Source: Eremomyces bilateralis CBS 781.70 (taxonomy: Eukaryota). From it: a stretch of DNA of 64,000 nt. The DNA is taken from assembly GCA_010015585.1 (NCBI GenBank), contig ML975164.1. One strand, 5' to 3'. The position numbers and the translations under genes are program-made. Of the stretch, positions 22,011 to 27,858 are shown in pieces. A model generated the notes under the pieces. It made no database searches. It saw only the letters and a program-made list of their open reading frames with translations, and was not told the DNA's origin. Numbering within the stretch: the first letter of the stretch is position 1; each line of letters opens with the position of its first letter.

Positions 22011-24185
22011 TTATCGCCTCGGCTGCGCGATCGGCCGCGACCGTTGCGCGCTCTTATACGGACTCGCGCCACCGACCGCACCGCCAACGCTGTCCTCCCG
22101 GATTGTGCGCTGCCGCTTCAAATCACTGCCGGGGGCGTCCACATCCTCGTGCTTATACTCGTCGTCGTCGTCGCGCATGCGCTTCATCCCCGTGGAGACC
22201 ACGCCGTTCGAAGCGCCGTACGCGCCGGGGACGGCCTGTGGATGTGGCGCGTAACCAGTGGCAGGATATGAGTCCGGGCCACCGGCGCCGTTGGAGCGCG
22301 GGTCGGAGACGACGTTGTAGAGCGTGGAGGTGGATTGCTGGGCTGGGCGGTGGGAGGGGGCGGTGGGGCCGCCGTAGTTGGGGGTGGCCCATTGGGGTTG
22401 CACGGGGACGGTGGAGCGCGGGGTGGCGCGGCTAGAACCGTTGACATGGGCGGGGGAGTGGGTGTGGTGGGTGAGTTCGGGGGAGAGGTGGGGGTGGTCG
22501 GTAGGATGCAGGGGCGCGGGCTGGACGGGGGCGGTGGCGGAGGGGTAGGTGTAGGTGCCGCGGGTGGCGTCGTATTGGGCGTGGGCGCTGTAGGCATGGG
22601 GATCGTGCTCGGAGGCGGCATGGTCGTCGTGGGGAGCGCCGCCGTGGTGAACAGGATCACTGTGAGCGTAGCCGGAGTCGTGTTTCATTTCTGTGGAGGG
22701 GTTAGATGAGTTGGTGGGAACATTTGAGGTGTGAAGGACAGTGGATGGGGGAGGCATGTCGCTGATGGTGTTGGGATAAGATGATGATTGAGGGAAGGGT
22801 TGGCCGAAGCGAGATCCGCTGGGGGGATTCGAGGTGGTTATACTGACCTGGTTGGCTGGGCGCCGCTGTGTAAGACTGACGGGGCGTCTCATACGTCTGC
22901 GACGTCTGGTATTGCTGCATCGAGTTGATGGCGTTCGCGGGTGGAGTAGTGGCCGGCGTGGTTGGAACGGATCGTGCATTGCTCAATCCCGTATCGATCG
23001 AAAGAGGCTGGCCACTGGCTTGCATGCCAGGAACATTGGACCATTGGCCTTCGTATGCGCTGCCTTGCGTACTCATGCCCATAACGCTGGACGCGCTCGT
23101 GGGTGGCGTGGGGAAGGTATGGGCGCGACCAAGCTCAGGTCGGCCACTATGAGAAATACCCCCTGAAGGCTGAGGAGCCGCTGCAACGCTCATGGAGTGG
23201 TGGTGATGAAGACCGGGCGTTCCCGGAGCTTGGGTACTTTGTGGGAGATATCTAGCATCCCTTCGCGTAGCCGCGAACGCTCCGGCATTCAACGCCGTTC
23301 GCGGTTGGTTCGGGGGATAGAGCAAGGCACCGATATCATGGACAAAAAGGGGATAAAGCAGCTCGGTGATTTTCTCCTTGTTCGCAAATTGTAAGGCACG
23401 ATCAAAGGGTATCCTGCAACTGGTTAGCTCATGACTGGTAAAAAAAAGCTGTGGAACCCATACCAGACGCCCTTAAGGTGCATAGGGCCGATCTTCACCA
23501 CATGTCTGGTCTTCTCGCTCTTCAAGATGCCATCTCGTCGTCCACGCGTCATTCCAGCCACATTCAACAATTTGGTACCGTTGATCATGTGATTGTCTAA
23601 TTCCAGATTAGCCCTAGTGCATCAAGGGTACACGAAAATCAATTGCGCGTTTTGGGAGCTGGCTCTTACCTTCTCGCCTTGCAACACAGATGCCCTTCGC
23701 CTCGACCTGGAAGCAAAGACTCCCCTCATCCTCCCACAACGTCGCCGTCACACGCGGCTTCATTCCTGGAGGGGCAACTTGTCCCGTAGCGTCGTACGGG
23801 CGCTCGGCGCGGTTGTACGGGGCGCCACCTATCGAAGTCACACCGGTGGCATTTGAAGCCATGGCTGGAGGTAGAGTTAGCGGATGTGCAGGAGAGCAGG
23901 ATATTCAGCACACCGCCGAAGGAAATGCGATGTAGACATACCTGGTAGCGTCATCGGCATCAAGCTACTGCTCATTGACGATGACGGTGGATAGGCTTGT
24001 GGTTGCTGATGTTGAGGAGCACTGGGATATGCATATGGCGCTGTATAGGATGTTGGCGTGGACGAGTACGTCTGCGGCAACGGCTGCGACTGATATGGCT
24101 GATAGTGCCCCATGGCCGGCGGTGGTCCCGTTGACGGCACATGTGGCTGCGCATGCACATCGCCGTACGGCTGGATTTGATTCAT
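22011..24185 (-). CDS. stuA: APSES developmental transcription factor StuA/Asm-1; AUG-started model with introns 23941-23865, 23669-23597, 23463-23414 and an uncertain one at 22847-22691
   Basis: APSES/KilA-N domain [59 protein letters not shown]...[30 protein letters not shown] and [12 protein letters not shown] motifs; C-terminal KRMRDDDD...LKRQRT. Confidence 0.95.
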
Positions 24186-27100
24186 GTTGTAGGCCTCCGG
24201 ACAAGGATATCCCTCTGGATTCTGCGGCGGGTACGGCGATCCGTTCTGGCCTAGTGCATGCAATGCGTGACCGTTACGGGTCGAATGAGGGGTGCTCTCC
24301 GGTGAGGGCGTTTTGAAAGTGGCGGCGTTGCCGTTGACGGATGAAGAATAGGACGTGGCGGACCCGACACTATCGTGAGCGCCGACGGAACCTGAACTGA
24401 ACGATCCACCCCGAGGCGACGAGGACGTCGATGAACTCGCGTGTTGTATCTGAGGGAGTCCGGGAAGGCGCTCACTCGATACAGCAGGGCGTGGCGTGTA
24501 GTGCGAATTGTACCACGACGCGTCGACTGTGCCTCGAGGGTGGACCTGCGAAATCGACGGGAGCTCCAGCTTTCCGGTGTTCTGGGGATATGGGCCGCAA
24601 GGGCCAAAAAAGAAATTAGGAGAGGTGGACTTCACACGATGGTGAAGTTGATCGGGCACGGGTTAGCGCAAGATCAATTCTTGCGTCGATGCCTAGCAAC
24701 CGGACCCGTGGGTAGGAATTGGAAGGAAGCTCGATTGCAGGATCTGTGCACGTAACCGGGAAGCGAGCTGGATCCGGAATGGAGGATCGACAGCAGGCGG
24801 CAGGTGATAAGAGGTGGATGCAGGACACGACGGGCGAGCTACTTCCAGCTTGCACCAACGGTCTTGAAAGTCCTTCGAAGTTTGCTCCTGGGGGGATCGT
24901 GTCGAGAATATGAGACAATGTCGTCCTTTCCAGCCTTTACCCCGAAAACACGTGGGCAAACAGCTACACCAAAGGAGAAGAGAGAACGAGGGAAGAGGTG
25001 GAGGGGGGACGAAAGAAGACTGGAGCGAACAATTGGACCCGAAGCGGGAACGAGAGCAAGCTCAGGGATCGTCTGGTGGGCGCGACACCGAAGTCACCCA
25101 GTGGCGTCCGTTGTCGTTGGGGGAGAATGGTGGTCTGGTGGTACGGAGCGGCGAATATCGTGGCACGAAAGAACCGATGAATGGCCTTCTCTCTTGCTCT
25201 GCGAGGATGGTGAAGGTTGCCGCTTAGCGGTGGGGTGTGTTGGGTTTCGAAGTCTCGGGTCGTACTAAAAACAACTGGAACGCTTCAATGCTGTGACGAA
25301 GGGACGGGCAATCGTAAAAAAATCGTGTCGTTGCAACTTTGCAGGAATATGGTTCGTGATCGTCCAGACGAGATGAGTTGCTGATGATCTGCGGCGGGTC
25401 GTTTCTTCCTGATGTTTCGTTTCGCGAGCTTTTGTTTCGCTCGAATTGTAAAGTATCTTTTCTCAGCTCTTCTGTAATTGACTTGACAGCCGGACCCAAC
25501 AGAAAGTCGTAAAGATGCAATCCTTGCGCGATAGTTGAGGGCAGTGATAGAGGGTGGGGAAGCTGCCTTCTGGGAGATGGAGCCGTGGGAGGTCAATTCT
25601 AAACGTATTTCTTCGTTCCAGGTCGTTAAAGTCGTCGCACGTCGTTGGTCTCGTTCCAATCCAACCAACGTCAATCAACTGTGACAAGCATCCAAGGTCA
25701 TGTCAGCTCCAATGTACAGTACGATGGTGTTTTATGATAAGGCGAGTAGCTCAACGGTAACAGAGAAGCGCATGCATGCAGGACGGGAGCACCAACACAT
25801 TCACGTCTATGGTGTGGGAACAGCACACAACGATGCAGGAAGGGAAAGCGCCGCAGATGGGCCAGGGGGGTAAGGGAGAGAAATCTTTTTCTCACGGGGA
25901 GGTTGGTGAGAAGGGATAAAAGAAGGAAGAATTTCAGAGGAGGTTGGGATAGAAAGGAAGAGAAGCGGCAGTGGTCCAGCGTGAGTGAGAGAGTGGTGGA
26001 GTCGAGAGGAAAAGGCGCAATGATGGCGAATGAGGGAAGAAGTGGAGGGGTTGGCGGAGGAGGAGAAGCAGGGTTAAAGGAAGAGAGCGAGGAGGAATAG
26101 AGGGAGCGAAAGAGTGCAAGAGGGAGAGGAGGGTGGTGGAGGTGTTGGAGGTGTTGGATGGGCTGGTGGAGGAGATGGGATTGGGAATGTGGTGGTGAAT
26201 GGTGGACGGTCGTGAGAGCTTCAGAGCTTGAGAGAGAGCTCTCCGCGTGCGTGAGTGAGTTGTTAGAGGAGGCTGGGTGACTGGGTCTGGTCGCCGGGAT
26301 GAGGCCAATGCTGGTTATGGGCCGGGCGGTCGGTCGGGGGTCTAGGGGGGATCTAGGGGGGTCTAGTGCTAGAAGCCGGGCGCAGGAGCCACCACCAGTC
26401 CACCACCCATGACCCTACCCCACCACGCCCACCGACCACCATATGTCCACATCGACCACCACAAACTCTCCCTCTCACGCACACACTCTTCTATTCCAGC
26501 CAACAGAGCATTCAACACCATCCACAATAACATAATCAGAAGCGAATGGATGAGACCGTGAAATCCAGCAATCAACATCATACCGGAGAACCACAGTAGC
26601 TTGTAGATCCAAGAAAGAAAGAAATCAGATGTGCTTATATCCGCGGCAACTCACCTAAAAGTATTCTTTGACCACGTTGATAACTTCCTTACCCTTCCTT
26701 GCCACTCTCTTTGAAGATAACGGAATCGAAAAAGTTTGATGACGATAGCGGCCAACGCCAGAAGCCACCACTTCACATTCGACCACCACGCCTTTCCTCA
26801 GAGGGGAGAGAGATAACCGACAAGCACGTCCCAGCACTCAGCAGCTGTCAGTACCACAGTCAAAACTCCACCCAGTCTTTTTGACTTTCAACTGTCTAAA
26901 GCCACACTAGACCAGTCGTACCGTCGTCGAACGAACCCTCTTTGGCCTTCTTCACCAAGCGTCCGTTATTCCAACCTTCCGCTTTTACCACGGGGAATCG
27001 ACCAGGATTCACTTTCGCGGTATCAGTCGCGGTGCTAGGATCGCGCACTACGATTGGTTGGCGTCTCGGAGCGGTCGTTGGCTGAAGTTAACGGTAAGAA

Positions 27101-27858
27101 ATCGTCGGAGTGCAGATAAGGGGAATTCGGAAAAGTCGGGAGGATTAGCAGAGCGGATCCCGGGCCTCCGGAAAAGTGACTCTCCGATTCAGGGTTAGGC
27201 CGGCGACGGTAACGGGGGTTGTCGCCGCGCCGGTCCCAGCGTTTGCAAAGGATTTGCTTGGTTGGTTCGGGTCTGGGGTTGGGATGCTTCTGCCAACGCA
27301 ATGCTCGAAGAATATGAATCCTTATTCCGTTCCCCCAGGCTCGTCGGCTTCGATCTGACCAGAGAACCGTCGTGTCAAGAAATCCGACTTATCCGCTGGA
27401 ACCTGGATCGCAGATGATGCGGCTCTTTCGTGTGCGCAAGCGAAAAAGGTACCGCTTTCTGCGACTATGCGTCGTCGGTGTGTGTGGTTGCGTAGTCCGC
27501 GTTGCGTTTCGCTACTGCTGCTGTTGCCGGATTGAACCACGAAACAGAAACGGCGGTGCGCAGTGGGATGATGGTGTGGCGGGGTCGTGGAACAGGAAAA
27601 TGCGTCAAGCAGTGATGCTGGGCTTTTTCCGGCGATCCTTTCTCAGTGTCTCAGTGTCGCGGTCCTCTCCCGTACAGTGGAGATGGGGTAAGAATAGCAG
27701 CAGTACTCTGCAGGATTAGAGATAACCCGTATAGAAAACGGGACGAAACACGGCTGCCGACTTGGTATCTCAGTGGTCCAGCTCCTTGGGGAAACGTGGA
27801 ATGGGGAACCTGTCTTTCTTGCTGATATGTCGGTCGGCTTCCCTTACCTGCGTGGCTG
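24186..27858 (-). promoter_or_regulatory. stuA long multi-exon 5' leader with probable proximal and distal promoters
   Basis: AUG-free tracts on the minus strand at 24260-25688, 25896-26400 and 26779-27858. Splice donors at 25895, 26654 and 27847; acceptor at 25679; pyrimidine-rich TSS-like tract 25900-26200; CCAAT at 26305. Confidence 0.65.

Follow-up and report, generated by a model that had tools for sequence, protein, structure and literature searches.

In filamentous fungi, StuA has long been studied for its control of sporulation, sexual development, secondary metabolism, and virulence. In Aspergillus nidulans, StuA behaves in a dose-dependent manner and acts as a mixed repressor and activator. 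The APSES family includes A. nidulans StuA and its orthologues Asm-1, Stu1, Efg1, Phd1, and Sok2 (PMC6231087, PMC3749384; here and below, papers are cited for the accessible parts of their text). The StuA protein of A. alternata has been published with a length of 631 aa (PMC10715145).

N-terminal extensions that start at near-cognate codons are known from Neurospora crassa cpc-1 and from the CPC1 proteins of Pezizomycotina (Ivanov et al. 2017, PMC5487733). A CUG start has been proposed for Podospora anserina IDI-4, which is cited in the same paper (PMC5487733). The key context positions in these fungi are -3, with A, and +4, with G (PMC5487733).

Here, stuA of Eremomyces bilateralis, a minus-strand gene in a stretch of 64,000 nt that was analyzed as a whole (the window), is compared with these systems. 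StuA has a real and conserved N-terminal extension, which very probably is initiated at a CUG and yields two isoforms. Molds of several classes likely make a longer StuA that is missing from standard gene models or misrepresented in them.

The stuA gene and its open frame

A database protein identical to the window gene product is named StuA and marked partial. The N-terminus of this NCBI protein reads NTGKLELPSI and lies directly downstream of 24582. The KilA-N/APSES domain is recognized in the window protein (PF04383, 30.9 bits, cut-off 23.8). The window gene is the sole full stuA match in the E. bilateralis genome, the runner-up having 34% identity, and close homologues in Phyllosticta and Aspergillus are called StuA. 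By homologue names and the single full genome match, the window gene qualifies as the StuA orthologue. The features of the coding region are as follows.

22011..24569, minus strand: stuA coding region with the KilA-N/APSES domain (RNA contig joints, PF04383)
23865-23941, 23597-23669, 23414-23463, and 22691-22847, minus strand: coding introns of stuA (RNA contig joints)
24567..24569, minus strand: CUG, putative start of the 733-aa long isoform (CTG in 81/81 loci; 0 synonymous changes on a 35-sequence tree)
24186..24569, minus strand: 128-codon N-terminal extension, Met-free, rich in Ser, Pro, and Gly (sequence, Pfam)
24183..24185, minus strand: AUG start of the short isoform, the one commonly annotated (MNQ..., 605 aa; ATGAA in 35/35 loci, A at -3 in 29/35)
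24251..24259, minus strand: out-of-frame ATG inside the extension, encoding Met-His-stop (sequence; overlooked in the first-pass annotation)

The RNA evidence for E. bilateralis is one run in the form of contigs, which proved to be spliced; contigs drop rare variants and so may miss a minor spliced form. A 4680-nt contig is unbroken over 23942-25678 and shows the four coding-region introns. With these RNA-confirmed introns, the isoforms are 733 aa (CUG) and 605 aa (AUG) long. The NCBI model (P0003) omits intron 4 (22691-22847, minus strand), which leaves the C-terminus out of frame, and misplaces the boundary of intron 3 (23414-23463, minus strand; KGVWYGIPF vs. KGVWIPF). The correct ends of both introns are given by the RNA contigs.

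The first-pass annotation, made from the window sequence, had claimed that a long Met-free frame precedes the AUG and that a CTG within it could start translation. The frame is as it described. The minus strand is open from 24662 to 23877, that is, for 261 codons, and the first in-frame ATG (24185, MNQIQPY) lies 159 codons past the upstream stop. The CTG at 24569 stands in GGA AAG CTG GAG, which gives it A at -3 and G at +4; from it to this ATG there are 128 codons. The claimed lack of any AUG for more than 1 kb upstream holds as well, the nearest ATG upstream of the CTG being at 25691, 1122 nt away. The open frame holds 11 other in-frame near-cognates. When all near-cognates except AAG and AGG were scanned from 26024 to the AUG, the codon at 24569 was the only one with both A at -3 and G at +4 that is open to the main ORF.

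Coding conservation of the extension

In a protein search over 620 candidates, the 128-residue extension matched 72 proteins at E<=1, itself among them; the others share 39-68% identity with it. Aspergillus, Penicillium, and Onygenales joined the set with a profile built from 27 extensions (96 matches among 8000 candidates scored), which also gave 48 cluster representatives. Four named Sordariomycetes carry the extension (255 candidates, reached via one cluster representative), and the evidence from this class consists of proteins. The A. fumigatus models include the extension. Judged by sequence similarity, relatives of the extension are present in Dothideo-, Eurotio-, and Sordariomycetes. 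Neither Pfam nor the ESM Atlas gave a match for the extension.

Nucleotide-level comparison was made with loci from metagenomes. The pattern LELPSIS[QS]V matched 133 stretches, of which 82 were confirmed; the best 80 of these 82 were kept and make 81 loci with the window. In 35 non-redundant loci, the median dN/dS of the extension is 0.23 (141/595 pairs, pS 0.1-0.6), and that of the 70 codons from the AUG is 0.15 (60/595 pairs). Identity at the three codon positions of the extension is 0.59/0.64/0.40, the third being the lowest, and the two alternative frames contain stops in 27 of the 35 loci and in all 35, respectively. A dN/dS of about 0.23 together with the codon periodicity indicates that purifying selection acts on the extension at the protein level. 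Gaps in multiples of three make up 15/27 in the extension vs. 33/145 upstream (9 pairs), which favors coding but comes from noisy alignments and is given no weight here. The 72 protein matches and the CTG that is invariant in 81/81 loci place this pattern far beyond chance.

Stops within orthologous extensions, which the first-pass annotation had named as evidence against its reading, are absent. The first Met is reached stop-free in 48/50 distinct loci, and the remaining two end before it. The first Met of all 48 distinct loci of sufficient length occupies the homologous MN position, at a distance of 111-139 codons. Three motifs stand out in the alignment.

24543..24566, minus strand: motif 1, ELPSISQV (residues 2-9), more conserved than any other part of the extension (alignment consensus ELPSIS[QS]V)
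24456..24473, minus strand: motif 2, ERLPGL (consensus [ED][RK]LPxL)
24300..24314, minus strand: motif 3, KTPSP, conserved in the extension

KTPSP is a possible proline-directed kinase site, as its sequence suggests.

The invariant CUG and its context

The scan pattern took any of the six Leu codons at the CUG site, so that loci with ATG, GTG, or ACG were undetectable. The first Leu is nevertheless encoded by CTG in 81/81 loci, in 50/50 distinct loci, and in 36/36 below 85% identity; these loci share ancestry, and the pooled counts overstate their independence. Two codons further on, Leu is encoded by CTC in 22, CTG in 20, and CTA in 8 of the 50 distinct loci, and CTG accounts for 92/325 of downstream Leu codons. 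A tree of 35 loci, from which the truncated L036 was omitted, was used to count synonymous changes in the 31 columns whose residue is conserved and is neither Met nor Trp. Codons 1 (CTG) and 2 (GAG) are the only ones with 0 synonymous changes. The remaining 29 columns have 4-18, and the other three Leu columns have 8, 15, and 18. An ordinary Leu codon would change synonymously like those in these columns, and the CTG at 24569 does not behave in this way.

Conservation also extends upstream of the CUG.

24570..24581, minus strand: initiation context AACACCGGAAAG, consensus ACCGnAAAR, conserved across loci

In ACCGnAAAR-CTG-GAG, A at -9, C at -7, G at -6, A at -3, and A at -2 are found in 50/50 distinct loci, and A at -4 in 49/50. 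Position -5 would be the second position of a codon and yet varies without constraint; the upstream context is thus conserved as nucleotides rather than as peptide. The sequence ACCGNAAARCTGGAG occurs once in the genome. No conserved hairpin was found downstream of the CUG when 35 loci were compared with synonymous shuffles in six windows (mean z -0.30 to +0.67).

In database proteins, the motif could be placed in 128/164, and the residue at the CUG site is Leu in 125 and Met in 3. It is followed in every case by E, A, or D, all of which put G at +4. The preceding residue is K or N in 114/121 proteins that have upstream residues. Two Venturia nashicola annotations begin with Met at the CUG position; this may be a real ATG or a CTG written as Met. 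Alignment of orthologues was the check that the first-pass annotation had proposed, and in it protein-level conservation begins at the invariant CUG (81/81 loci). As in extensions of the cpc-1 type, a conserved near-cognate in strong context stands at the onset of coding conservation, with the Leu itself required by the search.

AUG avoidance and the two proposed isoforms

ATG is depleted upstream of the CTG. In the 150 nt before it, 1 ATG was observed vs. 59 expected (32 loci), and permuted triplets gave 30-53. In the next 150 nt further upstream, 7 were observed vs. 52 expected, and at 2-4 kb from the CTG the number is normal (393 vs. 360 expected, 13 loci). The depletion continues inside the extension. 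Among His, Asn, Asp, and Tyr codons followed by G, 3 end in T and 115 in C, compared with 119 in T and 205 in C before other bases; the count leaves out the last 31 codons, and its Fisher P of 1e-15 ignores relatedness. After the main AUG, such codons before G end in T in 79 cases and in C in 62, showing no avoidance. Since a ribosome elongating from the CUG is indifferent to out-of-frame AUGs, their loss points to selection on scanning to the AUG. The main AUG itself is found as ATGAA in 35/35 loci, with A at -3 in 29/35. The avoidance of out-of-frame AUGs between CUG and AUG argues that both isoforms, of 733 and 605 aa, would be made by leaky scanning, and it lends indirect support to the long and short StuA that the first-pass annotation had suggested.

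AUG avoidance is incomplete in one group. In 13/48 evaluable distinct loci (L001, L002, L009, L013, L018, L020, and L023-L029), a weak-context uORF of 25-28 codons in the +1 frame has a stop that overlaps the main start (AUGA). All of these loci are nearest to Dothideomycetes where they could be placed. The window retains the homologous ATG (24259), with a stop after two codons.

In the mechanism that we infer from these patterns, the stuA mRNA would have a long, AUG-depleted leader, and scanning 40S subunits would reach the CUG in near-optimal context. A fraction of them would initiate there and give StuA with the conserved 128-residue extension (733 aa). The remaining subunits would scan through the AUG-poor extension and start at the conserved AUG (MNQ, 605 aa), so that both forms coexist. 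The APSES DNA-binding domain would be present on both forms, and the LPSI, LPxL, and KTPSP motifs on the long form only. Given the general weakness of near-cognate starts, the long form is probably the minority.

The isoform ratio may be set by two transcripts, of which one starts upstream and reads the CUG and the other starts downstream and lacks it. Promoter choice would then matter more than leaky scanning, although both can coexist. In A. nidulans, stuA is said to have been described with two overlapping transcripts by Wu and Miller in 1997. Histoplasma STU1 has isoforms with longer leaders (10.64898/2026.08.26.747414). A shorter transcript starting downstream of the CUG could account for part of the AUG avoidance inside the extension. 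However, the avoidance covers the whole extension, and in E. bilateralis a single contig of uniform depth spans both CUG and AUG, though contigs cannot show transcription starts. We consider promoter choice as the main determinant unlikely.

Under the opposite emphasis, translation would start solely or mainly at the CUG and the Met of MNQ would be mostly internal, with a single long protein kept low by inefficient initiation. The CUG context is near-optimal and better conserved than that of the AUG, and the out-of-frame uORF that overlaps the main AUG in 13 loci would dampen initiation there. This reading is very unlikely. It leaves unexplained why out-of-frame AUGs are avoided throughout the extension and not after the AUG, and why the first Met keeps its homologous MN position in every distinct locus that reaches it, mostly with A at -3. 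Furthermore, near-cognate starts are leaky.

Leader, splicing, and upstream exons

RNA contigs define the leader as follows.

25797..26024, minus strand: 5' leader exon 1 (RNA contigs end near 26024, which is not a mapped transcription start)
25679..25796, minus strand: 118-nt leader intron, GT..AG, found spliced (depth 183) and retained (depth 187); overlooked in the first-pass annotation
24570..25678, minus strand: AUG-free 1109-nt leader part, continuous with the coding exon (unbroken RNA contig)

The spliced joint 25678/25797 is supported by a single contig, of which 30 nt lie on the shorter side. An intron start at 25895 was considered for the leader and is wrong, the RNA joint being 25679-25796. 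The 1109-nt exon part has 0 ATG vs. 9.6-12.7 expected. The intron-retained leader has five uAUGs with short uORFs, all more than 1.1 kb upstream, and the spliced leader has a single uAUG (ATG 25800) with a 3-codon uORF (Met-Phe-Asp-stop). Splicing of the intron, which is retained in about half, thus cuts five uAUGs to one. The 3-codon uORF is possibly the counterpart of a micro-ORF in the A. nidulans stuA leader, reportedly described by Wu and Miller in 1997. A separate RNA contig of low depth (17; 5474 nt), covering the window at 26346-27500 and beyond, starts about 320 nt upstream of the stuA leader.

An unannotated upstream exon could in principle supply an AUG by splicing, for example at 24582, and the CTG would then encode an ordinary Leu. 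A sequence resembling a 3' splice site, with branch-point-, pyrimidine-, and CAG-like elements and overlooked in the first-pass annotation, ends at 24582, the partial NCBI model begins right past this position, and many database models have upstream segments with a Met. Splicing at 24582 was rejected, as the RNA contig runs unbroken across it and AG is present there in 1/81 loci. Spliced mRNA-like contigs are available for 15/80 loci. Of these, 13 have an in-frame stop at a distance of 7-85 codons upstream and lack an in-frame AUG after it, and two do not extend far enough to show this. The upstream AUG-bearing exon that the first-pass annotation had named as evidence against a CUG start was found neither in the RNA contigs of E. 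bilateralis nor in the spliced contigs of orthologues. In 19 named database proteins with longer N-termini, the upstream segments are unrelated to each other save for one pair. P. tritici-repentis and A. fumigatus have several differing annotated N-termini each, as would be expected if predictors reach for any ATG. In addition, an ordinary Leu would not be held to one codon. The upstream exon is already largely refuted and is highly improbable as an explanation.

Entry into the frame by frameshifting from a uORF, or a DNA- or RNA-binding word in the CTG region with incidental peptide similarity, is of negligible likelihood: nucleotide conservation does reach 9 nt upstream and includes codon 2, but the upstream uORFs of the window gene (3-22 codons) end over 1 kb away and none reaches the site, dN/dS and codon periodicity show protein-level selection, and the alternative frames are stopped in 27 and all of the 35 loci.

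In Aspergillus models P0083 and P0208, stuA appears to be fused by annotation to a neighbor, with an additional Pfam family or 522 surplus residues; the apparent reason is that the predictor lacked an ATG. The first 45-60 residues of the extension recur in P0146, P0149, and P0151, either as a short fragment or within predicted proteins that are unrelated in all other parts, and the CUG position is Met in two of the three. These copies are possibly captured gene fragments.

Possible roles of the extension

The best guess for the extension, a speculative one, is that it carries short linear motifs for a co-regulator and a proline-directed phosphosite. Leu-Pro effector motifs are known from yeast Mig1, and LPSI and LPxL of StuA may resemble them. 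It is on this possible likeness that the Tup1-Ssn6 co-repressor becomes a candidate partner. A literature search on co-repressor docking by the StuA extension found nothing relevant. A Tup1 orthologue lies at G000:C7:about 95760-98285 (L096), where three sub-cut-off Tup_N pieces and WD40 exons are found, the WD40 domain being split over several exons.

A broader and doubtful proposal treats the CUG/AUG ratio as a conserved developmental switch. Long StuA would recruit Tup1-Ssn6 through its Leu-Pro motifs (LPSI, LPxL), and the short form would bind the same DNA but lack these motifs. Whether StuA represses or activates would then depend on the stringency of start-codon choice, on retention of the leader intron, and, in Dothideomycetes, on the AUGA-overlapping uORF. 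Since levels of eIF1 and eIF5, starvation, and meiosis change the use of near-cognates (PMC5487733), a regulated isoform ratio, which the first-pass annotation had suggested as a translational switch, is plausible, if speculative. If the switch is real, decades of AUG-start constructs have tested one of two StuA proteins.

The conserved longer form, with its 105-140 additional residues, has practical consequences apart from any switch. The stuA models in many species would be truncated, partial, or provided with invented first exons. Constructs that start at the AUG yield only short StuA, and edits to the supposed stuA 5' UTR may change coding sequence. A change of a single codon could probe whether the dose-dependent, mixed repressor and activator behavior of StuA stems from two isoforms.

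Comparison with known systems

No report of a CUG start in StuA was found in the literature searched, which covers a minority of subscription papers and neither of the 1997 papers by Wu and Miller and by Dutton et al. The accessible parts of PMC5487733, PMC7049704, PMC10715145, PMC3749384, PMC3503810, PMC6231087, and PMC11641030 and of the main text of the Histoplasma preprint (10.64898/2026.08.26.747414) contain no mention of it. In the accessible text of PMC5487733, stuA and asm-1 have 0 mentions.

Among StuA proteins, the window protein and the A. nidulans StuA family have the KilA-N/APSES domain in common (PMC6231087, PMC3749384). By length, the 631 aa of A. alternata StuA fit the short form, which suggests that it is the AUG form (PMC10715145).

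The closest parallel is cpc-1. Both cpc-1 and stuA encode transcription factors with a conserved Met-free in-frame extension, a conserved near-cognate with A at -3 and G at +4, and an AUG-only annotation that misses it (PMC5487733). The Pezizomycotina-wide occurrence of the cpc-1 extension is a further likeness to stuA (PMC5487733). In cpc-1, several near-cognates are used (ACG in 98/100 species, AUU, and CUG), and they bypass an inhibitory GCN4-type uORF2 (PMC5487733). Unlike cpc-1, stuA has a single CUG where conservation begins, no universal uORF, and an APSES rather than a bZIP domain. The two-uORF pattern of GCN4 and cpc-1 is not seen in spliced stuA orthologue leaders, which have 0 to 7 uAUGs in varying places, with the AUGA uORF in 13/48 loci.

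IDI-4 is also a fungal transcription factor with a conserved, proposed CUG start (PMC5487733). In IDI-4, the CUG is proposed to act instead of an AUG (PMC5487733), whereas stuA also retains a conserved downstream AUG. The proposed StuA pair further resembles LAP and LIP of C/EBPbeta, in which one mRNA with alternative starts gives proteins with a shared DNA-binding domain and different N-termini (PMC5487733). Opposite activities are established for LAP and LIP, whereas for the StuA isoforms they are a hypothesis. The coexistence of the two StuA forms by CUG initiation and leaky scanning is what we infer. StuA is a new case of near-cognate initiation, which in these fungi has an established example in cpc-1 and a proposed one in IDI-4.
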